In this document: positions 1 to 61,003 of the stretch, piece by piece
Layout of the letters: each line of letters starts with the position of its first letter
Position numbering within the stretch: the first letter of the stretch is position 1
IMG/VR virus record: IMGVR_UViG_3300026519_000012
Location: 751-64,750 of that record
Source: a virus
Lineage: Duplodnaviria; Caudoviricetes
Length of the DNA stretch: 64,000 nt
Direction: 5' to 3' (one strand)
Program-made: the position numbers and the translations under genes
Notes under the pieces: model-generated
What the model saw: only the letters and a program-made list of their open reading frames with translations
Database searches by the model: none
What the model was told of the DNA's origin: nothing

Positions 1-1
1 A

Positions 2-44835: not shown

Positions 44836-46226
44836 CTAAACGCGTACAAATACTTCGTTATACGGACGCCGCAACCTCTGCATTTGTTGGGCGCGTGGGC
44901 GAATTGTCAGTAAATTTGACTAACAAAAGCCTAGTTGTTCATGACGGCATAAACGCCGGAGGGCAAGAACAAGCAAGGGTTGATTTTGTTAATGTCGATG
45001 GTGTGCCAGCGTTGACGCAATTAAGTGCTGGTGTGGGTTCGATTGCAGGATTAACTGTGGGTGCTAATCGGCTTCTATATACTGAATCTTCTGATTCCTA
45101 CACATCAACGAGCTTGACCTTGCTAGGACGTAATCTTTTAGCAGGAAATAATACAGCCGCTATGCGTGCAACGTTGGAAACTCCTGGGCTGGCTGTCTCG
45201 AATACGTTTCTTAATCAGCATAATGAATTTCGTGGTCGTATTGAAATGAACAATCACGGTGTTACTCCTGCAAGTTTTGTTCATCATGATGACAACGCGG
45301 ATGTTGATAAAAAGCGTTGGGGCATTACAACTTCAGGAACGGCGAACGGAGACTTACATTTTCAAGCGCGCTCGGATGATGATATTACCCGTGTTGATTA
45401 TATGGTATGTACTAGAGGTACGGGTGTGTCTGTATTTAGGGTTAATTTGCTTGCGGGGGAAGTACAGGCAAATGGTAGCAATATTGTTACAGAGGCTAGA
45501 AATAATAATTTTGCAGGGCAGCAAAGAATTACTAACACTGCGCCTACCTTGTTTTTACATGAGACAGGCGTAGCGGCAGATAGTGGGAAATATTATTTTC
45601 AGGTGGATAGCACTAACCTGACTTTGTTTTTGATGAATGACGCAGAAAATGCATCAACTCCAGTAATGCAGTTTGCTAGAACGGGTATAAATAGTGATGC
45701 AATTGATTTTACTGCGGATAATTTTCGGATTAATGGTGAGTCGGTTGCTACACAATCACCTGCCGTGCCCGGCTATGTCAAAGGCAAAGCGGTTTATGTA
45801 TCAGCTACAGGGGACAACGGGTTAGGTATAAACATTGCTTCTAGCGCCGTTATGGATGCATGGGAGTCTTACGGCCCGACAGGTTCCGGCGCGAGTAACA
45901 TCATGGCGGATCTAGACGTACTCCCGGCAGGAGCTACTTGGGTAGAGTTATCTATACGATTGCTTATCCGCCGGATTTCAGCTCCCGATACATTAGTGGC
46001 TGTTTACGCACGGCCTACAGGTAGTACGGCTAATGGGATACTCACTTCAGTGGTTCTTCATGAAGCGCAGACGGATGCTGGTGAGATAAATGTGTATTTT
46101 CTACATCGGTCTATAAAGGTTGCGCTCGATGCGCAAAACCGTTTTGAACTTAAGTGGGATATCCCTGCATCTGGAACGGTACTATCCCAAGGTATTATAG
46201 CCATAGTCACAGGCTTCGGTGCCTAA
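44832..46226 (+). CDS. Tail fibre (phage B), Mtd-like N-terminal anchor
   Basis: VQILR...FVGRVGEL...LVVHDG..AGG N-terminal motif; C-terminus shared with 12038..13513. Confidence 0.8.
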   Translation: MTKRVQILRYTDAATSAFVGRVGELSVNLTNKSLVVHDGINAGGQEQARVDFVNVDGVPALTQLSAGVGSIAGLTVGANRLLYTESSDSYTSTSLTLLGRNLLAGNNTAAMRATLETPGLAVSNTFLNQHNEFRGRIEMNNHGVTPASFVHHDDNADVDKKRWGITTSGTANGDLHFQARSDDDITRVDYMVCTRGTGVSVFRVNLLAGEVQANGSNIVTEARNNNFAGQQRITNTAPTLFLHETGVAADSGKYYFQVDSTNLTLFLMNDAENASTPVMQFARTGINSDAIDFTADNFRINGESVATQSPAVPGYVKGKAVYVSATGDNGLGINIASSAVMDAWESYGPTGSGASNIMADLDVLPAGATWVELSIRLLIRRISAPDTLVAVYARPTGSTANGILTSVVLHEAQTDAGEINVYFLHRSIKVALDAQNRFELKWDIPASGTVLSQGIIAIVTGFGA

Positions 46227-46229
46227 ATA

Positions 46230-46424
46230 ATGAACCAAGATAAAATAGAAATAGCAAAAAACGTAGGCGACGCGGTAGTAATACCGACTGGCGTTGTGGT
46301 GTCAATAAGCTATTGGATCACTGATATTATCAATCCATTGATAACAGCGCTGATAGGCTTAATGACTATAATTTGGCTTTTTTATAGGATCAAAGAGAGT
46401 AAGCGCATCACGAAGGCACCTTAA
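46230..46424 (+). CDS. Putative holin (copy 2)
   Basis: Identical to 13517..13711. Confidence 0.55.
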   Translation: MNQDKIEIAKNVGDAVVIPTGVVVSISYWITDIINPLITALIGLMTIIWLFYRIKESKRITKAP

Positions 46425-46481
46425 TGAGCGACCTTATTATTACATCGCTATCATATAAACCCGTTACAAGGTAGGAATGAA

Positions 46482-46946
46482 ATGTTGATCGATAAATTTT
46501 TCATAATAGGGCTGCCAAGGAGTAGAACCTACTGGCTAAGTCAGTTTTTTGGCTGTCTCCACGAAGGCGTTTATCACTACCCAGATTACAGGGATTTTCT
46601 TAAGTCTGACCATACTGGTGATAGCACTACTTGTTATTTGCAGATAAAGGATCTAATCAAGGATGAGAGAAAAGTAATCATACATAGGGATATTAAAGAT
46701 GTTGGAGATTCTCTTGTTGAGCTGTTTGGGAAGTTTGATTGTAGCTTTCTGAAGGATATTGAAAAAGAATTACTAGAAGAAGATGGGCTTCATGTCCAAT
46801 TTGATGACATTAGCTCACGGTTAGAGGAGATATGGGATTACTGTAGAAGCGATGAATTCCCAAAAGAAAAAGCACTAAAAATGGACGACGTGATAATGGA
46901 AAACCATTTTTTAATTGGAGAGGTAAAGAAGCTTGTCATCTTATAA
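46482..46946 (+). CDS. Sulfotransferase-like protein (copy 2)
   Basis: Identical to 13769..14233. Confidence 0.6.
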   Translation: MLIDKFFIIGLPRSRTYWLSQFFGCLHEGVYHYPDYRDFLKSDHTGDSTTCYLQIKDLIKDERKVIIHRDIKDVGDSLVELFGKFDCSFLKDIEKELLEEDGLHVQFDDISSRLEEIWDYCRSDEFPKEKALKMDDVIMENHFLIGEVKKLVIL

Positions 46947-47502
46947 GAAGCTTGATTTAAGGCTTAATGTCCAGCCGCTCAAGGAAGCCTTGGAGCGCAG
47001 GAGCGACTTATTCGGCAAGTATGATTACCGGGCGACTTCTGAAGGATCGCCACACTCGGAAATGAAAGATATCTGGGTGAGATATAAAGACGTTGCGCCA
47101 CATATAAAATCGGGAGATTTCTCTAGCTTCGCTAACGAACATGACTCTATCTGGTATCAGGTATACCGGGATCTACCGGAGACAAAAGAGATTATATTTT
47201 CTGTAATGAACGCAGTAAATGGCGAACGACTTGGCGGCGTGTTAATCACAAAATTACCCCCCGGCGGTAAGATAAAGAAACATGTTGACGGTGGGTGGCA
47301 CGCTGAGTATTACGATAAATATTACGTGCCTGTTAAAAACGAAGACGGCGCTATATTTTCGTTTGAAGACGGGGTCATCGCCCCGGCGGAGGGTGACGTG
47401 TACTGGTTTGATAATTCTAAACCTCACTGGGTAGAAAACAACTCTGATTCGGAGAGAATTGCTATGGTTATTTGTATAAGAACTGATGGAGTAGAAAGCT
47501 AA
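46933..47502 (+). CDS. Asp/Asn beta-hydroxylase-like oxygenase (copy 2)
   Basis: Identical to 14220..14789. Confidence 0.8.
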   Translation: MSSYKKLDLRLNVQPLKEALERRSDLFGKYDYRATSEGSPHSEMKDIWVRYKDVAPHIKSGDFSSFANEHDSIWYQVYRDLPETKEIIFSVMNAVNGERLGGVLITKLPPGGKIKKHVDGGWHAEYYDKYYVPVKNEDGAIFSFEDGVIAPAEGDVYWFDNSKPHWVENNSDSERIAMVICIRTDGVES

Positions 47503-48938
47503 TGCCTTGGGGAGCAGCAGCGGTTATAGGTGGCGCGCTAGTATCCGGCTACGCATCAAATCGCGCGGCAGGAAAAGCGGCAGACGCATCACAATACGCC
47601 ACTGACAGCGCTAACAGGCTATCTGAGCGGCAGTTCGATATGGTACGTGGCGACACGGCACAAGCAAGGGCTGCAGGTGGTGAGGCGGGTGCCGAGCTAT
47701 CACGATCGCTAGGCCTTAGGACGCCGATCCCTGAAGCTTTTAACAGGCAAGCGGCAATCAGAGAGGAGATCAGGAGGTTACGCGATCGAACGGGGGACGA
47801 ATGGCGAAACTATGGCTTCACTGGGCAGTACGCTATTGAAGATGAGCGCTCTAGGCAGATCAGAGAGCTTGAGAATGAAAGTGATAATTTAACGCTTTAT
47901 GACGAAGCCCAGCCATTAGAAGGCGAAGTCCTGCCACAGTTTGGCGTTGAATTTAACTATAGCGGCGAAGGGCCTCAGTTTGAATACGGCGGCTCTCAGC
48001 CGGAATTTAATGATGCTAGTCGATTAAGCCAGTTTCAGAATCAGGGTGAGAATCTGCAAAGTTTTGAAACGGATCAAGAGGTTTCGCAGTTCGGCCAAGG
48101 TGACCGGTTCGAGTATGACCTCGAAGGCGATGCTGGCTATCAGTTTGCTCGTGATGAGGCAATCAAGGCCACCGGACGAGTCTCTGCAGCACAAGGCAAG
48201 CGCGGCAGTGGTAACCGGCTGGCAGAGGTCGCAGACCGCGTGACGGGCGTTGCATCGCAGTATGCTGACCAAGCTTTTAACCGACAGGTTAGAGCTTCCG
48301 CTGAGAACTACGGCCGAGACGTAAATGAATTCGGCCTTCAGCGCGCGGGTGATACTGAAGCGTACGGGCGAGAGCGTGGCGAATTCGCCATTGATTATGG
48401 CCGAAACATTGATCAGTACGAGCGCGATATCGGGGCTTTCAACGTAAACACTGGAGTGGCAGATCGCAACTATGGCCGAGAGCTAACGAGGTACGAAATC
48501 GCTCGAGGAAGAGAGGGTGAAGGCTATAATCGGGCAAATCGCCTCTATGAAGTCCGAACGGCTGAGGATAACCGAGAATATCAACGCGCGGGCGATGAAT
48601 ATAATCGTGGTTTCACAAGGTTTGGTGTTGAGACTGATCAGAATCGGGAGCTATACGGCCGTCGCCAAGATCGATTAAATCGACTTGCAAGTATGGCGGG
48701 AGCTGGGCAAACGGCAGTCAGTCAAAGTGCAAGCGCAGGTAGCAACTATGTCAATGCTGCCAGCAACAATCTGATGGCAAATGCTCAGAATCAGGGGAAT
48801 GCCGCGATGGTTAAATATCAAGGCCTAAACAATGCAGCACAAGCTGGGATCTCTAACATGTTAAGTTACAACCAGCAGCAGCAAAATAACCAGATGATGC
48901 AACAGTGGCTGAACCAGCAGCCGGGGGCGCTAAGATGA
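47502..48938 (+). CDS. DNA ejection protein gp7-like (copy 2)
   Basis: Identical to 14789..16225. Confidence 0.7.
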   Translation: MPWGAAAVIGGALVSGYASNRAAGKAADASQYATDSANRLSERQFDMVRGDTAQARAAGGEAGAELSRSLGLRTPIPEAFNRQAAIREEIRRLRDRTGDEWRNYGFTGQYAIEDERSRQIRELENESDNLTLYDEAQPLEGEVLPQFGVEFNYSGEGPQFEYGGSQPEFNDASRLSQFQNQGENLQSFETDQEVSQFGQGDRFEYDLEGDAGYQFARDEAIKATGRVSAAQGKRGSGNRLAEVADRVTGVASQYADQAFNRQVRASAENYGRDVNEFGLQRAGDTEAYGRERGEFAIDYGRNIDQYERDIGAFNVNTGVADRNYGRELTRYEIARGREGEGYNRANRLYEVRTAEDNREYQRAGDEYNRGFTRFGVETDQNRELYGRRQDRLNRLASMAGAGQTAVSQSASAGSNYVNAASNNLMANAQNQGNAAMVKYQGLNNAAQAGISNMLSYNQQQQNNQMMQQWLNQQPGALR

Positions 48939-50095
48939 GCGGCTTTAAGGTATTTGATTACAATCAGGCCATCGGTGGTGCAAACCAGAGCAGCCGAAAT
49001 AGACTTTCGATGATGCAGGGTATGCAGTCGATGACTGATCGCAGGGAAGATCGGCAATATAATCGGCAGAGTCAAAACCGACTATCTGAAATCAGGGACA
49101 ATCAGGAGAACCGCGCGCAGGCTCAATTCGACCAGAAACAGCAGATTGAGAATACAAAGTTTTTCTACCAAGGAATGACCGAAGTCGCCAGAGATCCATC
49201 GCGTGCCCAGTATTGGGCGGATGAACTTAAGAAGCGTGGTATCGCTGATTTTGACATCTCAAAAGGGACCCCAGAGCAATTACAGCAAGGGGCGGCTAAG
49301 CAGGCAGATGCACTTCGTAAATCATTGGAGGCCATTGGTGAGATTGCGCCTGAGCCACGGGAGAAATACGGGCAACCTGTTGCGGGCGTGGGGCCGAGTG
49401 GTAATCCCGAATTTCAGCGCTTTGGTGACCGAGGTAGCGCCCAGATTGTCAATGATTTCGTGCCGAGCAAGAAAGTCCCGCTGGTGAGCATAAATAAGGG
49501 CGAAGACAAGTACGCGACGGAGAGAATGAAGTTGCAGGCTCAGGGTATTAATGACTTAGGGAAAAATGCTAGCGCGGCGTACAAGTCATCCATGGCGATG
49601 GATCGGTTTACCAAGGCATCCGAAAAAGGAACAGAAGGCGGTGCCCAGCCAGTTATAACGGCGGTAAAGAACCTTTTAACCTCTTTTGGGTATGATGACA
49701 AACAGTTGGCGGAAGTAAGAATCATGGAGCAGGCGATCAATGACGTGCTTGCAAATAAGATGGCAACATTGGGTGCCCGCGGGCTGACTGACAGTGATAT
49801 GAATATACTCAAGGCGTCGCTACCTAGAGTTGCTACTGATCGCAATTCGAGGCTCGAAGTAGCTCGAATATTGAAAATCCTCAACGATTTTGAAATTGAT
49901 GAGTATATTGCCGAACTTGATGAAGAGAAGAGAATTAACCCTGAGCTAGCTAAGCGGATAATGGAACCGAGGTGGCTTAGGTTTTATAAAGCAGAAAAGG
50001 CCAAGGAGGCGAAGGGCAAGGATGGAGCGCCGCCGCCCTCAACCGATCAGCCCCCCCCCTCAATTGATGACCTGGTGAATAAATATGCCAACTAG
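48935..50095 (+). CDS. DNA ejection protein (copy 2)
   Basis: Identical to 16222..17382. Confidence 0.6.
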   Translation: MSGFKVFDYNQAIGGANQSSRNRLSMMQGMQSMTDRREDRQYNRQSQNRLSEIRDNQENRAQAQFDQKQQIENTKFFYQGMTEVARDPSRAQYWADELKKRGIADFDISKGTPEQLQQGAAKQADALRKSLEAIGEIAPEPREKYGQPVAGVGPSGNPEFQRFGDRGSAQIVNDFVPSKKVPLVSINKGEDKYATERMKLQAQGINDLGKNASAAYKSSMAMDRFTKASEKGTEGGAQPVITAVKNLLTSFGYDDKQLAEVRIMEQAINDVLANKMATLGARGLTDSDMNILKASLPRVATDRNSRLEVARILKILNDFEIDEYIAELDEEKRINPELAKRIMEPRWLRFYKAEKAKEAKGKDGAPPPSTDQPPPSIDDLVNKYAN

Positions 50096-51899
50096 AGAGC
50101 AGCTCGAATCAGCGCTAATAAATGCTGATAAGGCTGGAGACATTAACGCTGCAAAGCAACTTGCAATGGCAATCAAGCAAGGAGGTGAGATAGTCCAGCC
50201 ACCTCAAGAGGTGCCACCCAAAGACCCAGCTGAAGTGTACTCAGGATTCATACAGGGACTTAGAGATCCGGTTGACGGGCTTGCTCAGCTTTTATACGAG
50301 GCATTGCCAGAAGGGGTTAGAGAGTCAGGGGACGCTTTAAATAATTGGCTTTCTGAGAAAACAGGTTTTATTGAAAAAATCCCTGAAGGTGGGTTTACTC
50401 AATTGCTAAAAGACAAAGAAGCGAGGTACCAAGCCGGTCGAGTTAAAGAAGGAGACGAGGGCGCTGATCTGGACAGAATTGGAGGAAACTTCGTTTCAAT
50501 GGCGGTTCCGGGCGCACAAGTTCGCGCAGTCAGCGCGCTGGGAAAAGTCGCTCAGGGAGCGGCTTTGGGCGCAGGATATGGCGCGGCGTTGCCAACCTAT
50601 GGTGATGAGTTCTGGGTAGAAAAAGGCATGCAGGCCGCGATTGGTTCTGCTGCCGGAGGCGCCCTATCGGCCAGCGGTGTTGCCGCTGGAAAAGCCATCG
50701 ATGCAGGGAAGCGCATTTTACGACCTATGACTTCTGGCGGAAGAAAGGCTGATGTCACTGACACTTACCAGACTTTAGCCGGGAGTGAAAAAGATAAAAT
50801 TATTAGCGCGCTAAAATCAGCAAAAAAAGGGCAAACATCAGCGCAGGCAATCGCCAACGCTAACCGGGGAAGTAACGATGTATTTGGTGCGTCTATTGTC
50901 CGCCTAGAGAAGGACTTATCAAAAAAATCCCCGATTACCGACAAAATGCGAAGTGTTTACAAAAAACAATCAATGGATCGAAAAAGGTCTCTTGATAAGA
51001 TCGCAAAAACAGATGGTGACCTTGCCGAAGCAATAAAACAAAGAGATAGCAAGGCCGCTCCTTACTATGATGCGGCTCGGAAGTCCAGCAATAGCATCAA
51101 TGTCGAAACGCTAAGAAATAGCATCGATGGAGTTATAAGAGACAATATAAACGATACTGCGATCACTATTCCCCTTAAAAATATCCAGAGAAAGCTAAAG
51201 GATGCAACGCCAAGAGGGCTTATTTCAACGTCAAGCCATATCAAGCGCCTAATGAACAAAACAATAGACGGGAAAAATGTCTATGACAAAAAAGTGCTGA
51301 CTGAGATCAAGGAAGCGCTGGATAAGAGTATTGAGAAAAGCGTTGCTGATTACGACATTGCTAGAGAGATTATCAGGAGAGAATCTGTCCCCATAAATCG
51401 AATGAAAGTCGGCCAAGAGCTTAAAAAATCGCTTATTGATGCCACCGAGCAAGAGAAGGCACGGCCGTTTGTGAACGCACTAAGGGAGGCGCCTAGAACA
51501 GTTAAGCGCGCCACCGGGTTTACGGGCAATAACACGCTTGAAAACATTTCGAGCAGGGCCGAAATGGAGACATTTTATAAAATAAGGGATGAGCTGCTAA
51601 CTGACGAGAGCATGAGTAGACTTGCAAAAGGCGTCGACGGTGTTTTATCTGACATTTCTACGCAGTCAAAACCTCAACTGCCAAACGCTCTTGTCAGAGA
51701 GATTATGATAGCCAATCATCTGTTGAAAAGACTGGCGCACAAAGATTATGGAGCCGATTACCAGCGAATGATGCTTGACCTGCAAAAAAACCCAAAGTTG
51801 CTTGCAAAAGTGCTTCAGACAGAAAAGGACAGGAAGGTTCAGTCAGCAGTAATCAGATTGGTTGGTGAAGGCGCCGTTGTTTCAGCAGTGCCGCAATGA
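50085..51899 (+). CDS. DNA ejection protein (copy 2)
   Basis: Identical to 17372..19186. Confidence 0.65.
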   Translation: MPTREQLESALINADKAGDINAAKQLAMAIKQGGEIVQPPQEVPPKDPAEVYSGFIQGLRDPVDGLAQLLYEALPEGVRESGDALNNWLSEKTGFIEKIPEGGFTQLLKDKEARYQAGRVKEGDEGADLDRIGGNFVSMAVPGAQVRAVSALGKVAQGAALGAGYGAALPTYGDEFWVEKGMQAAIGSAAGGALSASGVAAGKAIDAGKRILRPMTSGGRKADVTDTYQTLAGSEKDKIISALKSAKKGQTSAQAIANANRGSNDVFGASIVRLEKDLSKKSPITDKMRSVYKKQSMDRKRSLDKIAKTDGDLAEAIKQRDSKAAPYYDAARKSSNSINVETLRNSIDGVIRDNINDTAITIPLKNIQRKLKDATPRGLISTSSHIKRLMNKTIDGKNVYDKKVLTEIKEALDKSIEKSVADYDIAREIIRRESVPINRMKVGQELKKSLIDATEQEKARPFVNALREAPRTVKRATGFTGNNTLENISSRAEMETFYKIRDELLTDESMSRLAKGVDGVLSDISTQSKPQLPNALVREIMIANHLLKRLAHKDYGADYQRMMLDLQKNPKLLAKVLQTEKDRKVQSAVIRLVGEGAVVSAVPQ

Positions 51900-52077
51900 T
51901 CCGCCAAGCATTACTTTAAAAGTAACAGTTAGCTTTTTATTTTGTTTAATATTGCCGACTCAATCGTATTTATAGCCGATCCACCCTTAATCATATCAGA
52001 CGTAACGTTGTAATGGCGTTAAAATGTTTGCCGCTCTAATTGTCTAAGCGCGGTATAAAACTGTTCTTCTATCTCGG

Positions 52078-52758
52078 TCATAATCTTTGATCCTCAAACC
52101 ACTGCTGCATACCAGTATCATAATTGCTAATGCTGGTGTGGTAATTAATATAATCGCGTCCTAATAAACCATTAACCCAATTTTTAATTTTAGTCCAGCG
52201 TGATCTGCGATTGATAACGTATGTAATATCAGGGTTGTAATATCCGGGAGGCAGGTGCTCAATCGGGTCGCCGTCATTGATAAAATGTACATTACGCTCC
52301 GGGTAATCAGCAGGTTGATAGCTGTCAACAAATGCCCCCGGTGATGCAAACGTACAGCACTGTGATTTAACACCAATATCAAACAGATCCGTATGTAAAT
52401 ACTGAGCTAACGCACCGCCGCGTGAGAATCCAGTGATGTAAATATTTTGTACCTGCTCATTATAATTCATGAGCCAGTTTTCAATGCGCTCGAACATTAC
52501 GTCATAGCCGCGAGTAAACCCATGCATACGGCCATCAGATGTTGCGTGAGCGTCGATATTGCGCAACCAGTCCAGATCATCATTGCTGCCTCTAAATGCG
52601 ATTACAACGCCTATGGCGCAATCCACGACTAGCACTGATTCGCCTAAGCCGTCAGCCTCGTTAAATTCAGTAACAAATTTTATGCCCCGAACCGGTGATT
52701 TAAACCCTTTCGCTAATTTCATAACTTGCCAGATTTGCTCGATTTCGTTATTTGTCAT
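52078..52758 (-). CDS. Lipase class 3 family protein (copy 2)
   Basis: Three N-terminal substitutions versus 19365..20045. Confidence 0.85.
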   Translation of the reverse strand: MTNNEIEQIWQVMKLAKGFKSPVRGIKFVTEFNEADGLGESVLVVDCAIGVVIAFRGSNDDLDWLRNIDAHATSDGRMHGFTRGYDVMFERIENWLMNYNEQVQNIYITGFSRGGALAQYLHTDLFDIGVKSQCCTFASPGAFVDSYQPADYPERNVHFINDGDPIEHLPPGYYNPDITYVINRRSRWTKIKNWVNGLLGRDYINYHTSISNYDTGMQQWFEDQRL

Positions 52759-52788
52759 TTATACAGTCCTCTCTGCTGATAAACCGGC

Positions 52789-52848
52789 GCAGCAATCTGC
52801 GCTAATGTGCGTGTTATACGCCATATATCCATGTACTTACTGTTATAT
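52789..52848 (+). other. attI-like recombination site (phage A copy)
   Basis: Non-hairpin site ending in G|TTATAT (G at 52842) at the head of the array; conserved with 20081-20138. Confidence 0.6.
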
Positions 52849-52854
52849 TCCTAA

Positions 52855-53856
52855 TCACGCTATCTGCTTAATTTTAAGCTCGCTGCCGCCTAGAATCGCA
52901 TTGCCGCAAGTAATCAAGCCATCCTCCTCGTCTTGTGAGGGAATAAACACAAGAGTATCGAATCCCGCAGCCGTGCAGCTATCTTCTGGCTTTTTGTAGG
53001 GTCGGTACGTTTGATACCCGTCTACCGTTTGAATACCGTTCTCGCGGCAAGCAGAATTATTATGGATCGGAGTTATCTTCACCATCCATTTATCAACGTC
53101 AAAAAGATTGGCAAGCTTTTCACCGTCCACTTCGTTACCGGAGGCGTAAGCTATATTTAAGCAATATTTGCGCCCTATAGGGCTCTGTAGGCTTTCTAGC
53201 TGATCCGCAATATACCCAAGCGTATAACTGCTTCCGCCAAACATTGCGGTTCTTTGTTTCTCTGAGCTAGTGTTGACGCTAATCTGTAATCCAGCCTGAC
53301 CTTTGAATAGATCATTCTTTATGGATGCCCATTCGTGGATTCTCTCGAACGTGTGTTTGTATTCTGGGCACATCGTGGTAAGAACTGGGTGGATAACTTC
53401 AATCCTTACTCCTGTTTCATCTTGGATTTGGCGTTTATTATTTGCCAGCCACTCGGAAAACTTAAACACATCGATATTAAAAATAGGCTCGCCCATTCTT
53501 GCAAAGTGAATGTTCAGGCGGTCTGTGTATTTTACGTTTTCGTAGGCCTTTAGTCCCGTATAAAACTGAGACTTTAAATCGTCAAAACTAACGTTACCTG
53601 AAAACTTAATGTTTGGTACGTCGCAAAAGGTGCATTTCATTATGCAACCATATTGAGTAGATAGGGTGATAACCCACTTCTCTTGCAGCGGCATAATCTC
53701 GCCATTCTCAACACCGTTAAGCTCGCGGGTGTAACCTAAAAAGTCGGCTTTTATGTTTTTGCGTTTCCCGTAATCACCAATGGAAAGGGTTTCTAATTTT
53801 CCTTTGGCGTAGTCATCAACAATCAAATACCCCGTGGGTAAGAAAATTTTATTCAT
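52855..53856 (-). CDS. Radical SAM protein, RlmN/Cfr-like (cassette 1)
   Basis: STQYGCIMKCTFC (CxxxCxxC), RMGEP, LQISVN and C-terminal TCG. Confidence 0.8.
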   Translation of the reverse strand: MNKIFLPTGYLIVDDYAKGKLETLSIGDYGKRKNIKADFLGYTRELNGVENGEIMPLQEKWVITLSTQYGCIMKCTFCDVPNIKFSGNVSFDDLKSQFYTGLKAYENVKYTDRLNIHFARMGEPIFNIDVFKFSEWLANNKRQIQDETGVRIEVIHPVLTTMCPEYKHTFERIHEWASIKNDLFKGQAGLQISVNTSSEKQRTAMFGGSSYTLGYIADQLESLQSPIGRKYCLNIAYASGNEVDGEKLANLFDVDKWMVKITPIHNNSACRENGIQTVDGYQTYRPYKKPEDSCTAAGFDTLVFIPSQDEEDGLITCGNAILGGSELKIKQIA

Positions 53857-53883
53857 GGTAGATTAGCCTTCCTCACAAATGGA

Positions 53884-53989
53884 ATATAACAAGGCAAATC
53901 CACTCCGACAAAATAAAGCGGTGCTTGCCCTGCGTTCTTTTTTAGCTCCTCACGCCGCTTTATTTCGCGGGTGATTTGCGACGTTATGT
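53884..53989 (+). other. attC site 1
   Basis: ATATAAC-aagGCAAATCCAC...GGTGATTTGC-gac-GTTATGT. Confidence 0.85.
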
Positions 53990-53990
53990 G

Positions 53991-54332
53991 TCAAATAAAC
54001 AATACACTCAACAGCGTCTCAAAATCGCCGCCGCACAAAATCTTCTTTTTACCTATATACGGCCCAGAAACTTCGTAATCGTCGATTGATATTCGTTTTA
54101 TTTTATAGTCGCCAATACAGATATTTACCGATGGCTCAATGTCACAATTAAATCGCCATATTTTTTGAGTTTCGTCAAAAGAAATATCAATATTATCGGC
54201 AACAAAGCCACGGTCAAATAACGCGCTGTAAACCTCTATTGGCTCAATCTCGGCATCTTTAGTGCCCTCAGCGTCCATCAAGTGTTTTTGGTCTCTTACC
54301 TCTAATTCTAGTTTTGCGAGTAATCCACACAT
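53991..54332 (-). CDS. Hypothetical protein (cassette 2)
   Basis: ATG lies inside the R'' of attC2. Confidence 0.6.
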   Translation of the reverse strand: MCGLLAKLELEVRDQKHLMDAEGTKDAEIEPIEVYSALFDRGFVADNIDISFDETQKIWRFNCDIEPSVNICIGDYKIKRISIDDYEVSGPYIGKKKILCGGDFETLLSVLFI

Positions 54333-54428
54333 AACAATTAGCTCCAGCGGACACAGTACCGCGCCGCGTTTTTAGTTAAATTTAAGCTCCTGTGCGGCGG
54401 TACTGCGCCGCTGAGCATGGCGTTAGAT
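54329..54428 (+). other. attC site 2
   Basis: ACATAAC-aatta-GCTCCAGCGGAC...CCGCTGAGC-atggc-GTTAGAT, with an extra C in L''. Confidence 0.9.
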
Positions 54429-54767
54429 AGCTCTATCATTGTATTCATCAACTGCATCAAGCGGACTCCTTAGCTCCATCTCCTCAACATCACAAACAAT
54501 GAGCTTATAAACCAGTTCATCAGGAGCAAAAACCAGTCTTTTTGTTATCCCTGTTTTAGGGTTTTTGCAGAATGCAATTTCAATTTGCCTCTCCATCACA
54601 GATGTTATTCGATCCATGTCTATTGACTCTACCCCTAATACCATTCCTTCTGGATTGAGCGGGTCATTAGAAATAGTCAGCCCACCGTCATCATTAACAT
54701 TTTCAGTATCCATGCCGCCTTCAGCAATACTGGCGGTTAATGCATTAGCTAAGCTTTTATCAATCAT
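54423..54767 (-). CDS. Hypothetical protein (cassette 3)
   Basis: GGAG RBS; the stop TAA is the TTA of the crossover. Confidence 0.6.
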   Translation of the reverse strand: MIDKSLANALTASIAEGGMDTENVNDDGGLTISNDPLNPEGMVLGVESIDMDRITSVMERQIEIAFCKNPKTGITKRLVFAPDELVYKLIVCDVEEMELRSPLDAVDEYNDRAI

Positions 54768-54793
54768 AAGGCAACTCCGTAATTAAGTTCGCA

Positions 54794-54880
54794 ATCTAAC
54801 AAGTAATTCCAGTGGACGCTGGTAGTCCAGCGCTTCGCGCATGCCGCATTCCGCGCGCCACTGAATAAAAGTCGTTAGCT
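54794..54880 (+). other. attC site 3
   Basis: ATCTAAC...ATTCCAGTGGAC...CCACTGAAT...GTTAGCT. Confidence 0.88.
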
Positions 54881-55141
54881 GTCAAACGAAATAGCACTGA
54901 TTGTCTTAATCTGCCGATCAAGCGATTTCAACTTCCTAATTCTAATCTCGTCAGCCCTAAGCACTGCGTCCTCTCTACATTTGTGCCAATCCCGCCCCTC
55001 ACCGTGCAAATAAACCGCACAAGAACATTTATTTTTAGGTATAACAATCAGAGAGTTGTTAGCATCCATAGGGTCAATCTCGTGCTCAATAATGCCCTCT
55101 GTTAAACAATATTTCGTGCTCCAAATTTTCATCTTAGTCAC
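54875..55141 (-). CDS. Conserved phage hypothetical protein (cassette 4)
   Basis: WSTKYCLTEGI...GEGRDWH...KSLDRQI. Confidence 0.65.
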   Translation of the reverse strand: MTKMKIWSTKYCLTEGIIEHEIDPMDANNSLIVIPKNKCSCAVYLHGEGRDWHKCREDAVLRADEIRIRKLKSLDRQIKTISAISFDS

Positions 55142-55151
55142 TCCGTCGCAC

Positions 55152-55249
55152 AGCTAACAATCAAAATTCACGCGGACAAAATGCCGCGACGTTTTTACTA
55201 AATTTAAATCTCATCATTGGCATTTAGCCGGTGATTTTGGGCGTTATGC
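55152..55249 (+). other. attC site 4
   Basis: AGCTAAC...CAAAATTCACGCGGAC...CCGGTGATTTTG-ggc-GTTATGC. Confidence 0.88.
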
Positions 55250-55250
55250 C

Positions 55251-55544
55251 TTAAATTGAATTAAGTATTTTAATGCCGTTATAAAACGGAGATTCTGATT
55301 TTTCAAATTGCTCTTTCGCATTAAGCATTTTCTCTCGCCATTGCTCGCGTGTTTGCAATGCCAGCAAAATTTGGTCACGACTTAATTCGTCGAATTCTTC
55401 CCGCAGTTGTTCCATGTTCATTTCTGATATTGATACTTTTCTATACTCAACGCAACTATCCTTTGAGTGCTGTGGATAAATAGGGCATGTTTTATTTGCT
55501 TTTGAGCAGAAAAAACATTCTTTGCTTAGTTTAGGCTCAGGCAT
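55251..55544 (-). CDS. Hypothetical Cys-containing protein (cassette 5)
   Basis: True start probably MPEPK, with the ATG inside the R'' of attC5. Confidence 0.55.
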   Translation of the reverse strand: MPEPKLSKECFFCSKANKTCPIYPQHSKDSCVEYRKVSISEMNMEQLREEFDELSRDQILLALQTREQWREKMLNAKEQFEKSESPFYNGIKILNSI

Positions 55545-55640
55545 AACAATTAGCTCCAGCGGACGCAATACCGCGCCGCGTTTTGTAGTAAATTTAAAGT
55601 TCTCAGTGGTGGTACTGCGCCGCTGATCATGGCGTTAGGT
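55541..55640 (+). other. attC site 5
   Basis: Close relative of attC2; GCATAAC...GTTAGGT. Confidence 0.88.
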
Positions 55641-55853
55641 GGCTTGTGGTTGCTCTACGGCTGATAGTATAAAGCTGGCTCTACAAATCACTTCCTCGCC
55701 AACTCCCTTTACGTTGTAATCACGTATGGCCGTTGTTTTCCCACCGCAAACAATCCCGGTTATCCATGTGTCGCACTGTTCCGTTACCCGCATCATAAAA
55801 GTTCCTTTTCGTTGCGCTGTGATTAAATATGTTTTTCCTGTTTCAATGTTCAT
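55635..55853 (-). CDS. Hypothetical protein (cassette 6)
   Basis: GGAGG RBS; stop lies in the crossover. Confidence 0.6.
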   Translation of the reverse strand: MNIETGKTYLITAQRKGTFMMRVTEQCDTWITGIVCGGKTTAIRDYNVKGVGEEVICRASFILSAVEQPQAT

Positions 55854-55881
55854 TTTCTAATCCTCCAGTGTAATTCCCGCA

Positions 55882-56000
55882 ATCTAACAAAACAAATCTA
55901 CGCGGACAATGTGCAGCGGTGTTTGTTTGCGTTGGCAGTTAAGTTAAAGTTCGTCTCAGTGCGCTTGCATTCCACAAATAAGTCAATTTAATCGTTAGGC
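55882..56000 (+). other. attC site 6 (right arm degenerate)
   Basis: ATCTAAC..CAAATCTACGCGGAC is intact; the L' arm is poorly complementary; ends GTTAGGC. Confidence 0.65.
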
Positions 56001-56285
56001 ACACAGTTCGCATTCACCATCACAGCAGCGCTCTTCATGATTCAGCAGTCCGCGCATAATATTCTCCTCGGCATTTTTTAAAAGCTCTTTTAACTCAGAT
56101 GCGTTTTTACATTTCCCGCATTCCTTATCGATAATAGCGCTTATAACTTGGGCAATAGTTGCGTGATAGGTTATTTTTTTCTTCCGTTTTACATTTCCGT
56201 TTCTGTCTTTCCCGTCCCGCCATTGGTATAACTGCCACCCCGATGTATCTCGTTTAAAGCTATAATTTTCGTTTAATTTGATCAT
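55995..56285 (-). CDS. Hypothetical protein (cassette 7)
   Basis: AAGGAAG RBS; stop lies in the crossover. Confidence 0.6.
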   Translation of the reverse strand: MIKLNENYSFKRDTSGWQLYQWRDGKDRNGNVKRKKKITYHATIAQVISAIIDKECGKCKNASELKELLKNAEENIMRGLLNHEERCCDGECELCA

Positions 56286-56358
56286 TTTGTCTTCCTTAAA
56301 AAAAAATGGTGGGCCAAGGCGGGCGCATTAACCAGTTATGCTATTGGCCCTAAAAAGC

Positions 56359-56469
56359 GCCTAACAATTGCATCCACCCGGACAGTCCTACGCGGTGCTC
56401 ATTTGTGCCAAAAAAGCCTGGCACAAGCCTCCACGGCTTCGGCCTGCGCGGTTATGCGCGACGTTATGT
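56359..56469 (+). other. attC site 7
   Basis: GCCTAAC..GCATCCACCCGGAC...CGGTTATGC-gcgac-GTTATGT. Confidence 0.82.
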
Positions 56470-56470
56470 A

Positions 56471-56680
56471 TTAAATATCTTTTAGCCATGATGTGTGATA
56501 AACAACTTGACTACCATTCTTAAACTCTAGCGTTACGTCACCATTAGAATCAACTCCGCGAGCAATAGCTTTCCGGTTTGAATAGCTGTCTTTATACATT
56601 ATTTGGTATTTTTTGCCCGGCTGAATATCATTGCGCGAGAGGCAATTATCAGTGTTTAGCATTACTCGCTCCTTTGCCAC
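56471..56680 (-). CDS. Small hypothetical protein (cassette 8, gene b)
   Basis: Stop immediately after R'. Confidence 0.5.
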   Translation of the reverse strand: MAKERVMLNTDNCLSRNDIQPGKKYQIMYKDSYSNRKAIARGVDSNGDVTLEFKNGSQVVYHTSWLKDI

Positions 56681-56844
56681 TCACGACTAATTGAATTCTT
56701 ATGCCAGCCCTCTTGTTCAAGCTTCGCTTCTGCCATGTCTACCAGCAGCGCAATATCGCACTCATCTCTAACAGAGCCGCAGTCTTTCATGACGTTCACC
56801 TTGTCACAGATAGCGGCGATTAGCTCTAAATTGTCCATAATCAA
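56662..56844 (-). CDS. Small hypothetical protein (cassette 8, gene a)
   Basis: GGAG RBS before MDNLE. Confidence 0.5.
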   Translation of the reverse strand: MIMDNLELIAAICDKVNVMKDCGSVRDECDIALLVDMAEAKLEQEGWHKNSISREWQRSE

Positions 56845-56858
56845 TCTCCAATTGAGTC

Positions 56859-56946
56859 ACATAACAAGTGCTTACACGCGGACAGTCTTCCGCGTCGTTC
56901 GCTCCGCTCTCTATGCCCCAGCCTGCCGGTGAAGCTGTCGTTAGCT
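56859..56946 (+). other. attC site 8
   Basis: ACATAAC..GCTTACACGCGGAC...CCGGTGAAGC-tgtc-GTTAGCT. Confidence 0.85.
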
Positions 56947-57004
56947 GCAAACGCAGGCACTTCAGCGCCGTAACATCCTCGCTACACATTCCGCTCCTTT
57001 ATTG

Positions 57005-57502
57005 TTAAAACGGGATATCATCATCAAAGTCGTCAAAGTTCTGTGATCCGCCTTGCGACGGTGCAGCACTCTGACGTTTGTTGTCGGCACTGCTCGGCGC
57101 ACCCCCGCCTTGATTTTGATGCTGGTTTTGGTCGCCCCCATATTCACCGCCGCTTGAGCCATCACGGCTATCCAGCATCTGCATATTGTTAGCGACGATT
57201 TCAGTCGTGTAGCGATCTTGACCGCTGGTTTTATCCTGCCATTTACGTGTACGCAGGCTACCTTCCACATATACCTTAGAACCTTTCTTCAAGTATTCAC
57301 CGGCGACCTCACCTAAACGATTAAAGAAGACGACGTTATGCCATTCGGTACGCTCTTGCTTCTCGCCGGTCTGTTTATCTTTCCATGACTCGCTCGTGGC
57401 AATCGTCACATTAGTGACCGCTGAACCACTCGGTACATAGCGCACATCAGGATCTTTACCTAGATTACCAATCAGGATTACCTTGTTAATACCTTTTGCC
57501 AT
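57005..57502 (-). CDS. ssb: Single-stranded DNA-binding protein
   Basis: [15 protein letters not shown]...ERTEWH...DFDDDIPF; gammaproteobacterial type. Confidence 0.97.
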
Positions 57503-57609
57503 TACTTTTTCCTTCCAATGTGAATAGTTACATACTTAATAAATTTCTGAGCGATTAGCATTCAATCCCCGTGACAGGCTCGAATTTTGGCGCTTTCAAT
57601 CACTCGACG

Positions 57610-59235
57610 TTACTCGGCTTTTGATTCAACGAAGGCAACATGCGGGACATTGCCGGTTGAAATCATTTCGGCAATTTGTTTGGCCTGTTCAACGTTGATG
57701 GCCGTGTTATCAACTAAGTATTTCGCGACCTCTGCGAGGCTCGTTCTCCGCACTGAGCATGTCACTTTCAGGTTCTTCTTGGTTTGGACTGGCGCTGCGC
57801 TGCTTGACTGCGCTCCGCCATTTAATGGCGACTCTGTTGCGTCTTTGATGGCGGCTGCAGTTTGCTGATTTTCCTCTAAATCGATACGCTCATTTTCAAG
57901 CTTCTGCTGCTCTTCCTGTCTGATTTTCTCGCGCTCAGCTTCGATGCGCTTTTCTTCGGCTGCTTTGTGCTCTGTGATTCTCAGCTTAATGACGTTAACA
58001 AGATCATCGTTATTTTTAAGTACGAGTGTTGCAGCGTCAGAAAATAGAAAAGTGTAATCAGCGGCTAACTCCCTTAATGAGTCAAGGTTGGTTTGTATTT
58101 TGTCAGCAATTTCATTTGATTCAATCTTTGCTCTAGCCAGCTCCGTATCAACCGCATTTCGTTGGCTCGACACCGTTCGCTTGCCTTTTACAGCGCCTGC
58201 AAAGTCAGTCGTAATAGCTGGCATATATGGCTTTCCAATGCGTTTATTTAGACTTTCAATGTGGGTGCTCATTGCAGATTTTCCAGCCTGCAAAATCTCA
58301 AAGCGAACAGCGTCTTTTCTTGCTTGAACCAGTTTTTTTAGATCAAGGCGGGTTGCTCTGGCTTGCGCCTTGATATCGTCAATGGTTTTGAATAGCTCAT
58401 CGATGGTGGCCGTTTGGCTGAGTGCGTGCTCCTTTGTCGCTTCTAGGCGCTTTTCTACTTCACCGCACCATTTGACAGTTTTCTCGGCATTGGAAAAATC
58501 TTCGTCCGTTTGAAGATCTTTGTTGATATTGTCAAAGACAGCTAGCGCCGTTTCTCTAAATTCCATCAGGTTTGATGACGTTACCATGCCACTTATTTCA
58601 ACGCGCAATGCTGGGAGCGTTTCAGGGGCTTTTCCGATAACTTCCGGCGCAGTTTCGACGTGCTGATAGTTAGCGACATCTTCATCTAGCTGTGCCCATC
58701 CGGCCAAAAGAGATTTTCTGTCATCAGGATTTAGCGTCATCACAACATGTACGGTTTTTTCTTCCGTGCCGTCCGTGACCATATAAAGGCATTTTTCAGC
58801 ACCAACACAAAGCTGCTGGACAACTTGCCAATAATCCTCAAGGGGTACAATTCCATTGCGAACATCATCGGCTTTTTCATCGTTCCACTGCTTGCACTCC
58901 CAAGCATAGTCTTCTTCCATCGTTATCCCATCATAACTGGCAAGTAAATAATCATCGTCATCAATGGCTGTTACAGGATAAAGCTTTCTGCCGATAATGG
59001 ATTCAGCAATTGGACGTGATTCCGCCTCGACTTCATGTCCTTTTTTGAAGATTACATTTTGCACATAGCTATCGATCTCTTTCTCGCTACCAGTGGCCAT
59101 AATTTGAATCAATTCGTTACGACTGGTATTTTTGCTAACACCCATCATCACTGGGGCCATTGATGCCGAGTGTGGATATTTTCCGCGAATATCATGCCAC
59201 GCCTGCTCGCCCTGAACTACATTAAGAATTTTCAT
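57610..59235 (-). CDS. YqaJ-like (lambda exo family) exonuclease with long coiled coil
   Basis: QGEQAWHDIR, SASMAPVMMGVS, GHEVE, LLASYDG, WECK, QVVQQL. Confidence 0.88.
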   Translation of the reverse strand: MKILNVVQGEQAWHDIRGKYPHSASMAPVMMGVSKNTSRNELIQIMATGSEKEIDSYVQNVIFKKGHEVEAESRPIAESIIGRKLYPVTAIDDDDYLLASYDGITMEEDYAWECKQWNDEKADDVRNGIVPLEDYWQVVQQLCVGAEKCLYMVTDGTEEKTVHVVMTLNPDDRKSLLAGWAQLDEDVANYQHVETAPEVIGKAPETLPALRVEISGMVTSSNLMEFRETALAVFDNINKDLQTDEDFSNAEKTVKWCGEVEKRLEATKEHALSQTATIDELFKTIDDIKAQARATRLDLKKLVQARKDAVRFEILQAGKSAMSTHIESLNKRIGKPYMPAITTDFAGAVKGKRTVSSQRNAVDTELARAKIESNEIADKIQTNLDSLRELAADYTFLFSDAATLVLKNNDDLVNVIKLRITEHKAAEEKRIEAEREKIRQEEQQKLENERIDLEENQQTAAAIKDATESPLNGGAQSSSAAPVQTKKNLKVTCSVRRTSLAEVAKYLVDNTAINVEQAKQIAEMISTGNVPHVAFVESKAE

Positions 59236-59236
59236 A

Positions 59237-60175
59237 TTAGCTACCTTCCTGTTCCCACGCGTCAATTTGATTTTGTTGCTCAGGTGTTAGTTGCATTGCA
59301 GTAAGCGCAGTGCTGATAACGTCCTTGGCTGATTTCTTTCCTGATCGCACTAATGCCTCGCAGTCTTTTGCCAGCTCCTGAAATTGATCGTCAGTGCAAG
59401 CGATAAGGGTGTCGCCTTGAGTGGGCGCGCCCTCATCACCGCCTCTATCCATGTCAATAACAACCCCGCCTTCTATAATAGGGTTCCGGCCTGCTTCCGC
59501 TGCATGGCTAACAGTGATTGCATTGGAGACCTCAACCGAGCAAGGCATATATTTCAGCACTTGAAGTAGCGGTACTTTTCTGCAATACATTTCCCAATCT
59601 CGATGGCTGTAATGGCTCCTCCCAACTTTATTGTATTTATCACGGTGCTTCCGCAGCTTTGCTACTGTCCAGAGTTCAATGACGGGCATTTTCGAATCCT
59701 TAACCCAGCCAATAGCGTAGGCGTGAGTCATATCGTTCGGATCATCAAGATCTGTTTCATTGTGAATAACCAGGTCACGTCTGGCACCATCGGTGAATGT
59801 GTAATCCTGATCCTTAAATATAACGCCGGTGTAAACTGTGGCGCGACCACTCCGTGACACAAGATCAACAAGCCCCTTCCAGCCCGGTACAAATGTGCAG
59901 GTGGTTTTATAGGGGATCAGATACCCCGCGCCATTAACTCCGGGTTCTAAGCCCAACTGCCCGGCTGTCATTAATGATGCGGCGATACTGTTGACATCGC
60001 ACTTTTGTAGCTTTGGTGATGTGCTAAAGGCCGTTAATGCCAGCCGGGTCATCCTGTCGGCTGTCATGTGCTTAGGCAGGGCTAGTTCAAGTTGAGGTTT
60101 CAGCTTTTCCATAAAGCTGCTGAGTTCCGCAACTGGGGATTTCCGCTTTGCTGCCACTTGCTGTTGAGTAGTCAT
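59237..60175 (-). CDS. recT: RecT-family ssDNA annealing protein
   Basis: LALPKHMTADRM, QLGLEP, YLIPY, GWKGLVDL.RSG, EMYCRKV. Confidence 0.92.
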   Translation of the reverse strand: MTTQQQVAAKRKSPVAELSSFMEKLKPQLELALPKHMTADRMTRLALTAFSTSPKLQKCDVNSIAASLMTAGQLGLEPGVNGAGYLIPYKTTCTFVPGWKGLVDLVSRSGRATVYTGVIFKDQDYTFTDGARRDLVIHNETDLDDPNDMTHAYAIGWVKDSKMPVIELWTVAKLRKHRDKYNKVGRSHYSHRDWEMYCRKVPLLQVLKYMPCSVEVSNAITVSHAAEAGRNPIIEGGVVIDMDRGGDEGAPTQGDTLIACTDDQFQELAKDCEALVRSGKKSAKDVISTALTAMQLTPEQQNQIDAWEQEGS

Positions 60176-60202
60176 AGCTATTTTCCTTGTAGTTCTTTTG
60201 AG

Positions 60203-60526
60203 TTATTGAATGTAGTTTAATAACTCAGATTCAATTTTAGTTAAATCGCCTTTATTCTCCAGCGTCATTAGTAGCCAACTTGCATCAACCAAGCGGCCAT
60301 CTTTTTCTCTAATCCGCGCCCTGCTGATCTCGCAATATTTTGGTTCCTCTGGCGCAACAACCAACCCAGCTTCATAGTGCGCCGGGATTTCATCAAACAC
60401 CTCATATTGCAGCTCAACATCTAGCACCACAGGCACACCTAGCACATCCATCTCTAATTCAAACTCATGTTCGCCAATCATGTCAGGATGCCTGTTCTTG
60501 TAGCATTGCAGGGGTTCTAAGTTCAT
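60203..60526 (-). CDS. Hypothetical protein
   Basis: Early leftward operon. Confidence 0.5.
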   Translation of the reverse strand: MNLEPLQCYKNRHPDMIGEHEFELEMDVLGVPVVLDVELQYEVFDEIPAHYEAGLVVAPEEPKYCEISRARIREKDGRLVDASWLLMTLENKGDLTKIESELLNYIQ

Positions 60527-60846: not shown

Positions 60847-60883
60847 TTTCTATTCCCCCCCTTATGTTTTGTAGCATGAGCGA

Positions 60884-60997: not shown

Positions 60998-61003
60998 GAT
61001 CGT

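Follow-up and report, generated by a model that had tools for sequence, protein, structure and literature searches.

Is a 58-nucleotide sequence (the 58-mer) that stands between a lipase gene and a phage cassette array the primary insertion site of that array, a phage counterpart of the integron attI, as an initial annotation of this locus proposed? The window analyzed here is a 64,000-nucleotide stretch, bases 751–64750 of a 64,750-nt virus record (IMG/VR record IMGVR_UViG_3300026519_000012), and it reads as two phage genomes, A and B, placed end to end. Each half carries structural and tail genes on the plus strand and then early genes on the minus strand, the latter encoding DNA polymerase A, helicase, ligase and a PD-(D/E)XK nuclease in half A, and SSB, a RecE-like exonuclease and RecT in half B. 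One copy of the 58-mer is present in each half: copy B at 52789–52846 (+), with a putative crossover point G|TT at 52842|52843, and copy A at 20081–20138 (+), with its putative G|TT crossover at 20134|20135. The copies stand beside a class-3 lipase/esterase gene (52078–52758 on the minus strand in phage B, Pfam Lipase_3 E 9.2e-10, phrog_21992; 19365–20045 in phage A). In phage B the other end of the array is flanked by the backbone SSB gene (57005–57502 on the minus strand, Pfam SSB E 1.9e-41), with the RecE-like and RecT genes further up.

The 58-mer in the context of the two halves

BLAST aligns 12788–20138 (+) with 45501–52846 at 99.35% over 7351 nt, a shared block that includes tail genes, the lipase gene and the 58-mer. 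Identity within this block is uneven: 13288–19946 is 100% identical in both halves, and from 19989 on the identity is ~80%, the first 57 lipase bases carrying 10 mismatches (47/57 match). The leader that separates the 58-mer from the lipase start (20046–20080 in phage A) aligns poorly and contains a 5-nt indel, and past it the 58-mer resumes at 79% identity. Conservation of the 58-mer thus equals that of the adjoining lipase coding bases and exceeds that of the intervening leader, and the divergence of the 58-mer between A and B, compared with the 100% identical block, makes it part of an older, diverged homology layer. The initial annotation had placed the 58-mer outside the long repeat of the window; the BLAST repeat in fact spans it, and what stands of that description is that the 58-mer has diverged and lies beyond the 100% identical part. 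Nor can the two phages be called otherwise unrelated, since they have in common 7.35 kb of tail and lipase genes plus a cassette fragment (below).

Copies A and B match at 46/58 positions without gaps, as originally noted, and this is the best 58-nt ungapped match between their 300-nt flanks; when one flank was shuffled 60 times, the best such match averaged 28.6 and never exceeded 31. The 12 mismatches have no period of three, and no in-frame ORF is shared across the two 58-mers. The similarity was also correctly said to stop near the G|TT, and homology between A and B ends directly after GTTAT, where A continues GCATCG... and B continues ATTCC.... The second, upstream GTGTTA is present at 52811–52816 (B) and 20103–20108 (A); its GTTA box (52813–52816 and 20105–20108) lies 29 nt upstream of the terminal GTTA, and this spacing is the same in A, B and a third copy found in a metagenome contig, L183 (below). 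In attI1 a GTTA box stands 32 nt upstream, and L199, an intI-adjacent region, has one at the same distance, against 29 nt in the 58-mer; four other intI-adjacent regions lack a common pattern, and the second box, which the initial annotation likened to accessory IntI-binding repeats, may be an unreliable mark of attI.

We agree with the earlier description that the 58-mer is not an attC hairpin. It forms no end-to-end hairpin, an attC covariance model (below) gives it ≤1.5 bits with filters off, and its fold z-scores are between −1.5 and +1.7 (three copies; both strands for A and B), compared with −3.2 and −2.6 for the neighboring attC-like elements B8 and B5. A small hairpin, GCGCAG-loop-CTGCGC, is present at its lipase-side end (52787–52802, minus strand); in copy A and L183 this 6-bp hairpin survives on the minus strand alone, by way of G-T pairs. 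Two one-sided changes hint weakly that the hairpin may be conserved, and we regard it as a lead. Scans of B, A and L183 gave no sigma-70-like promoter in or beside the 58-mer and no terminator inside it. In A and B the 58-mer lies 30–35 nt upstream of the lipase start, and in all three copies it is upstream of lysis or lipase genes, a place in which it may have a regulatory role.

An independent sequencing run, X2, contains contigs that span the lipase 5′ end and the 58-mer and have the copy-A form of the indels at 52831/52833. Depth in X2 at the attC regions B2 and B8 was 846 and 168, versus 0–170 in other bins, which fits the presence of a common attC family in that community. A different first cassette in run X2 was considered and judged too weak: a single contig joins 52822 to 53885 with a side of 43, at a likeness threshold of 85, and bins 52949–53569 are without cover. 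Two joints, 53986 to 54332 (run X1) and 53990 to 54328 (run X2), were not read as excision products, as their sides are only 21 nt.

The cassette array of phage B and its attC elements

The 4 kb between the SSB gene and the 58-mer of phage B are made up of small minus-strand ORFs, each followed by an imperfect palindrome of ~90–120 nt with xxTAACG at its minus-strand start and TTGTTAG/T at its end. Phage B (four hairpins), L183 (two) and a locus called L004 (one) were the three contigs that supplied a set of seven hairpins with a common structure of 24 pairs, in which 93.3% of the cells are paired and 11 pairs are changed on both sides; none of 500 shuffles scored as high, and slid controls gave 33–40%. 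RNAalifold returned no structure for a MAFFT alignment of all 20 elements and did return one for the seven-element subset; AAC and GTTA are invariant in 20/20 aligned elements.

A covariance model, R1, trained on the same seven hairpins finds seven sites in phage B, three of them outside its training set (E 3.4e-10, 2.1e-7 and 0.004), as well as sites in L004 and in another locus, L013. An Rfam search gave nothing relevant. R1 also picks up the bottom strand of the aadA1 attC of plasmid R100 (E 0.003); at E ≤ 1 it missed the remaining attCs in three control loci, among them those of aac(6′)-IIc and IMP-1. In a gammaproteobacterial sample 38/151 genomes were matched, with E-values down to 3e-19 and up to 19 matches per genome; three of the five genomes with the best R1 matches contain an integron integrase above the TIGR02249 cut-off, and one R1 attC match (in the bacterial locus L200) lies 0.96 kb from intI. 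The covariation and the R1 matches to bacterial attCs place the array elements in the ordinary bacterial attC class.

Read away from the 58-mer, the array begins with cassette 1 (52843–53983, +), a radical-SAM-like 333-aa ORF (52855–53856, −) plus attC B8. This ORF is certainly a real minus-strand gene: it matches phrog_24834 at E 2e-107 and is 50.8% identical to the radical SAM protein of Bacteroides phage Versailles. The attC B8 (53884–53989, −; R1 94.5 bits, a training sequence; z −3.2), whose bottom strand is the minus strand of the window, has a 3′ arm with three bulges of one nucleotide each (T, A and G). Cassette 2, a 113-aa ORF (53991–54332, −), is closed by attC B7 (54329–54428, −), which scores 50.5 bits (E 3.4e-10) from outside the training set, and cassette 3, a 114-aa ORF (54423–54767, −), is closed by attC B6 (54794–54880, −), also outside the training set (23.3 bits, E 0.004). 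The start of cassette 4 (54873–54990, +), with its 88-aa ORF (54875–55141, −), is 100% identical to L183 2597–2714. Further on lie attC B5 (55152–55249, −; 82.2 bits, a training sequence; fold z −2.6) and attC B4 (55541–55640, −; 39.7 bits, E 2e-7, outside the training set). B4 and B7 are 86.5% identical over 104 nt, and the ORFs beside these two similar attCs, considered as possible paralogues, are not paralogous. A candidate B3 (55882–56000, −) has TAAC and GTTAG ends and a poor hairpin; its outer stem is absent and R1 does not match it at E ≤ 1. The training sequences B2 (56359–56469, −; 72.8 bits) and B1 (56859–56946, −; 74.6 bits) complete the series, B1 being the last of the array and adjoining the SSB gene; its unconstrained fold is no better than those of shuffles (z 0.06).

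All eight cassette ORFs of phage B are on the bottom strand and point towards the 58-mer, and four of the eight stop at a TAA that is the complement of the TTA in the crossover box. CALINs in phage genomes are described as attC arrays without an integron integrase in the sections cited here of Qi et al. 2023 (PMC9892861), and the phage B array, with seven model matches in 53884–56946 and no integrase in the record, is one: a CALIN is a cluster of two or more closely spaced attCs with no integron integrase in the vicinity.

Phage A is different. The variable stretch behind copy A (20139–20998, 0.86 kb) contains a 96-aa ORF (20357–20647, −) and no intact attC; no attC is detectable by the model there (the best score is 6.5 bits with filters off), and the stretch is not a CALIN. 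It does contain a truncated version of cassette 2 of phage B (20742–20921 = 53981–54160, 99%), and at its DNA-polymerase end an inverted copy, ACTTACAGTTAT (20999–21010, −), exactly matches ACTTACNGTTAT, the last 12 bases of the 58-mer. The 58-mer was originally said to head the array in both phages; this is true of phage B (and of L183), and in phage A it heads a decayed remnant only.

Polarity of the array

The strand matched by R1 is the minus strand of the window. In R100 the R1 match is on the strand opposite the aadA1 gene, i.e., the canonical bottom strand, and a bacterial array (L184) has its R1 matches on the minus strand and three plus-strand ORFs. In L200, a real integron, intI and the attC match are on the same strand with attI between them; the arrangement of lipase gene, 58-mer and attC matches in the window is the same, with the 58-mer at the place of attI and the lipase gene at the place of intI.

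The bulges of the elements provide a second indicator of strand. In the sections of PMC5027507 cited here, the extrahelical bases of bottom strands are assigned to the arm across from the AAC triplet, and VCR2 and attCoxa2 have three of them. The consensus structure of the phage elements has three 1-nt bulges on the 3′ arm, opposite the AAC, so the model strand agrees with the bottom strand. Individually, on the ORF strand, 1-nt bulges are on the 3′ arm in 9/17 phage elements (two others are mixed, and six either give no information or have larger loops on the opposite side), whereas in 3/3 known attCs they are on the 5′ arm of the ORF strand, the mirror image of the phage elements. The phage attCs resemble VCR2 and attCoxa2, as these are described in PMC5027507, in being long and in having three 1-nt bulges ~4 nt apart on the bottom strand, and the B8 bulges G, A and T are those of attCoxa2 (G16, A20, T24). 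What differs is the gene orientation: in the orientation model given in the cited part of PMC5027507, and in L184, the ORFs are on the top strand, whereas those of phage B are on the bottom strand. Judged by attC polarity, the comparison supports placing the 58-mer at that end of the attC-type array which attI occupies in integrons.

A third copy and cassette exchange

L183 is a 2714-nt metagenome contig, the sole match in one contig scan with a pattern made from the conserved blocks. Its positions 1409–1466 are identical to copy A at 57/58 positions, within a 65-nt island of identity (20073–20137 versus L183 1402–1466, 98.5%) with unrelated DNA on both sides. The three copies part right after CTG|TTA, continuing TTATGCATCG in A, TTATATTCC in B and TTAGCGATAA in L183. 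The initial annotation had suggested examining whether the sequence past the GTT varies; it does, being different in each of the three. Homology among the copies has a sharp right edge, and its left edge fades.

To the left of the L183 copy are a 131-nt unrelated leader, an endolysin gene (GH108 plus a peptidoglycan-binding domain), a holin gene and then the lipase gene, the 5′ end of which is 96.7% identical to that of B and 95.0% identical to that of A. Because the endolysin and holin genes intervene in L183, the 58-mer is not simply the lipase promoter.

To the right of the L183 58-mer are two attCs of the same family and polarity and two top-strand ORFs, one of which ends inside an attC. 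The identity of L183 2597–2714 to window positions 54873–54990 (100%) begins at CG|TTAGCT, and this shared start of cassette 4 is preceded by different attCs, J2 in L183 and B6 in the window. Similarly, the cassette fragment common to A and B begins at ACG|TTATGTG. That identity starts at these points implies that cassettes have been exchanged at the plus-strand G|TT in this phage group, and the 58-mer ends in G|TTA, the same as the cassette exchange point.

Searches for an integrase and for relatives of the 58-mer

A six-frame search of the whole 64,750-nt record with PF00589 gave no tyrosine recombinase match at E ≤ 1, controls being positive in 14/14 genomes, and a Pfam search of 10 large ORFs found no recombinase. 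An integrase that uses the 58-mer must therefore be supplied in trans. The integrases beside the L004 and L013 arrays are ordinary phage integrases, none above the cut-off of the integron-integrase model.

No 58-mer-like sequence was found in the five genomes with the best attC matches (best E 0.13), and among 401 sampled genomes there was only a 19-nt match in one, inside a 50-nt tandem repeat and near the chance level. In a plasmid collection the 58-mer had no match and one attC gave an irrelevant 39-nt match; megablast and blastn searches of a phage collection with the region gave none. The lipase has no relatives by tblastn against phages and none in viral or genome contigs, and among 5.8 billion proteins it finds its own cluster only. 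Three pattern scans of viral contigs found nothing. Looser patterns gave 33 and at least 120 stretches in viral contigs, which were set aside as chance-like, bar the contig of L004 itself; L004 is absent among the matches listed by the second of these patterns (at least 120).

Loci with RecE relatives (14 viral, 6 genomic) contain arrays in L004 and L013 only, and neither of two loci with DNA-polymerase relatives contains one. To the eye, the L004 and L013 array ends look similar to the 58-mer, but a shuffle control led us to reject them as copies of it: the L004 end is the best 40-nt match in its locus, yet 10/40 shuffles score as high, and the L013 end is not the best match within its own locus.

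Discussion

The features described above partly support the view that the 58-mer is an attI-like junction, as judged by position and by comparison of the copies. In favor of the attI proposal are its location at the end of the array as defined by attC polarity, the variable DNA after the G|TTA, the cassette boundary at CG|TTAGCT and the fact that it is not tied to the lipase gene; against it stand the lack of an integrase, the failure of the genome searches above to turn up a bacterial attI like the 58-mer, and the absence of an intact attC behind copy A. Also against the attI reading, the known copies number only three, all from a single small set of related phages and two from the same record, so that common descent suffices to account for much of the conservation. 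We nevertheless hold it to be quite probable that cassettes have been joined at this junction repeatedly. The more specific view, that it is the attI-like recipient site of a phage cassette array and is used by an integron integrase supplied in trans, has in our estimation about an even chance of being correct.

The mechanism we propose is as follows. The 58-mer would be a fixed double-stranded junction, the attI-equivalent end of an integron-type array that sits between the early genes (SSB and RecE/RecT, or DNA polymerase) and the lysis/lipase module. Cassettes would be joined to it at G|TTA (52842|52843 in B; 20134|20135 in A) when an integron integrase supplied by the host recombines the folded attC bottom strand of a cassette with the 58-mer. 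Integrase-driven insertion there would explain why the first cassette differs among the phages while the 58-mer stays. In this scheme the enzyme would be a host IntI, and the 58 bases themselves would be bound and cut by it or otherwise needed.

The best of the alternatives makes the 58-mer a passive flank. The array would have inserted once at a secondary backbone GTT of the attG kind, the 58-mer being the neighboring backbone, kept by descent and as a patch of homology for the swapping of whole arrays. In its favor, integron integrases insert cassettes at many genomic sites that are neither attI nor attC, according to the part of a preprint cited here (bioRxiv 10.1101/2022.09.11.507474), and the record has no integrase in cis. 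The 65-nt island of A/L183 identity between unrelated DNA looks like a mosaic joint, and the closeness of the L183 lipase 5′ end to both B and A (above) fits frequent homologous exchange nearby. A single past insertion does not easily account for three different first cassettes that abut an identical G|TTA, however; neither attC × attC recombination nor homologous exchange in the flanks can make new junctions at G|TTA, so recombination must have occurred there repeatedly in some lineage. The sharp right and fading left edges of the homology also count against it, as does the fact that the 58-mer (79%) and the lipase coding bases (47/57) are similarly conserved on either side of a poorly aligning leader. 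Both parts of this explanation, the single insertion and the patch of homology, seem to us unlikely, if still to be taken seriously.

Less probable again, in both of its parts, is that the 58-mer is a regulatory element (promoter, operator, leader or terminator) of a minus-strand lysis/lipase operon and merely happens to sit at the end of the variable region. Its distance of 30–35 nt from the lipase start in A and B and of 131 nt from the endolysin-holin-lipase genes in L183 would suit such an element, and so would the lipase-side hairpin, which G-T pairs preserve on the minus strand of A and L183; moreover, the L183 cassette ORFs run the opposite way, so the lysis genes there need a promoter within 1278–1470. 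Set against these points, the scans of B, A and L183 show neither a sigma-70-like promoter nor a terminator within the 58-mer, and a purely regulatory role accounts neither for homology that breaks off at G|TTA, in phase with the attC crossover point, nor for the attC polarity. A regulatory role could coexist with a role in recombination.

That the 58-mer is the decayed attC of the last cassette is very improbable and largely refuted: its minus strand does start with ATAAC right past the 333-aa ORF, where an attC is expected if the ORF strand is the top strand, but it has no partner GTTA downstream, no end-to-end hairpin and an R1 score of ≤1.5 bits with filters off, and attC polarity makes the ORF strand the bottom strand, so that the array begins here, at an end that should have no attC. 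An assembly artefact, by which the joining of two phage genomes at a common repeat duplicated a single sequence, is scarcely credible. The 100% identity of 13288–19946 in the two halves would fit a collapsed or shared assembly path, but the 58-mers differ at 12 positions, their leaders differ by an indel, a separate contig (L183) has the A form and contigs of run X2 cover the site.

The attI-like reading can also be weighed against known systems. Like attI1 of class 1 integrons (R100, In2), the 58-mer is double-stranded, stands at the array start, is joined to cassettes at G|TTA, forms no hairpin and carries, ~30 nt ahead of the crossover, a direct GTTA(C) box (29 nt here, 32 nt in attI1). Unlike attI1, it has no intI adjoining it or anywhere in the record, its sequence similarity to attI1 is limited to the GTTA, scans find no Pc-type promoter, its neighbor is a lipase or lysis gene, and in phage B every cassette ORF faces it. 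Since all eight do so, none of them could be expressed from a Pc-type promoter located there. In the cited part of PMC2095811, attI sites are said to be recognized by the cognate integrase only. The attG sites described in the sections of bioRxiv 10.1101/2022.09.11.507474 cited here are similar in being double-stranded, outside a classical integron and joined to cassettes at GTT; they differ in being many and little conserved, whereas here one 58-mer is constant and both of its sides are variable.

Clusters of attC sites in phages have already been published (PMC9892861), and the phage B array, attC sites without an integrase, is like the phage CALINs described in the cited sections of that paper, which also note GTTRRRY-like motifs at phage array boundaries and report that IntI1 can use phage attCs. 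A difference is that the cited sections of PMC9892861 describe no conserved array-proximal site common to phages with different first cassettes. In the literature searched we found no account of such a site common to integrase-less phages with different first cassettes, nor of arrays with all genes on the bottom strand. Short conserved sequences that flank variable modules and favor their exchange are familiar from the "linker" boundaries of lambdoid phages and the promoter-stem-loop cassettes of the T4 type, which act through homologous recombination; by comparison with those joints, the break here falls at the crossover base of a site-specific system.

Integron cassettes move on plasmids and transposons, and attC clusters are on record for a few phages. 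If the present reading is true, integrase-less phages would also be active in the cassette economy, by way of a host enzyme, and phage accessory genes would be linked to the large, mostly uncharacterized pools of chromosomal cassettes. We suggest, tentatively and with the balance of our own judgment somewhat on the side of doubt, that the 58-mer is an orphan attI, a landing site by which a phage without an integrase borrows the integron integrase of its host. Were that so, the phage could exchange cassettes with the chromosomal integron pool in both directions, and the bottom-strand genes of phage B would be read from the early operon, with new cassettes entering at the promoter-distal end. 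The gene orientation in phage B would then show that cassettes are adaptable to transcription from the far end of the array, which is not foreseen by the classical model of a promoter at attI. The 58-mer and the phage attCs make a simple pair that can be tested at the bench.

Composition of the record

The two halves of the window, phage A and then phage B, are identical over 6.66 kb (100% identity between 13288–19946 and 46001–52659), and a diverged transition zone lies at either end of this block. The record may consist of two co-occurring phage genomes that were joined through a shared assembly path, and, if so, the pairing of early with structural regions is uncertain. The GC content is 0.46–0.50 in positions 1–18000, 0.37–0.40 in 20001–32000, and 0.42–0.47 in both 34001–46000 and 52001–62000.

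Within a 491-aa ORF (12038–13513), a tandemly repetitive stretch at 12395–12784 (period 39 nt, overlapping 156-nt copies) immediately precedes the start of the block of tail genes, lipase gene and 58-mer (the attI-like junction site) that the two phages share. Elsewhere in the window there is a direct repeat of 75 nt (2093–2235), and the gap separating the phage halves holds a weak match to the Rfam phenylalanine leader (33582–33692, minus strand; 36.7 bits relative to a gathering score of 55, E 0.014).

Sequences adjoining and resembling the 58-mer

The leader of the phage A lipase gene contains 10 consecutive C and then 9 T (20046–20066, plus strand), a tract that is missing in phage B and in L183, the metagenome contig that carries a third copy of the 58-mer. 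The lipase 5′ end in L183 (positions 1–300) has 96.7% identity with copy B and 95.0% with copy A; inspection by eye finds A-type bases near 240–262 and B-type bases near 263–298, as would be seen if this lipase segment were recombinant.

The 58-mer's final 12 bases recur without mismatch in inverted orientation (ACTTACAGTTAT) on the minus strand at 20999–21010. This copy lies at that end of phage A's variable stretch which faces the DNA polymerase gene, and the stretch is thus bracketed by inverted 12-mers. A search of phage B for a counterpart with at most one mismatch found none. Among the 401 sampled genomes, one contig (L206 1–763, G300:C500) is made up over its whole 763 nt of a 50-nt unit repeated 15.3 times. 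In one of these repeats, 19 bases match the central part of the 58-mer, around GTGTTACAC; a match of this kind is near chance level in a sample of 401 genomes, but it might be a hint of a protein-binding box.

Cassette boundaries and the wider attC family

Of the eight cassette ORFs that phage B carries on the minus strand, four terminate in a TAA complementary to the TTA in the G|TTA crossover box (54423–54425, 54875–54877, 55635–55637 and 55995–55997, all minus strand), and the end of each of these genes is the exact cassette boundary.

Arrays of attC elements are also present in two prophage-like viral contigs, L013 (5759–8160) and L004 (11263–12582), whose RecE relatives have 46% and 58% identity, respectively. 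Both arrays occupy the same place, with SSB/recombination genes on one side and a phage integrase on the other, and their ORFs lie on the strand of the attC covariance model (bottom strand); the end of L004 adjoins a tRNA-Val gene. In the independent sequencing run X2, summed contig depth is 168 in the bin over attC B8 (53777–53983) and 846 in the bin over attC B2 (56261–56467), with 0–170 in the remaining bins, and the depth at these two elements suggests that this attC family is highly repeated in that community.
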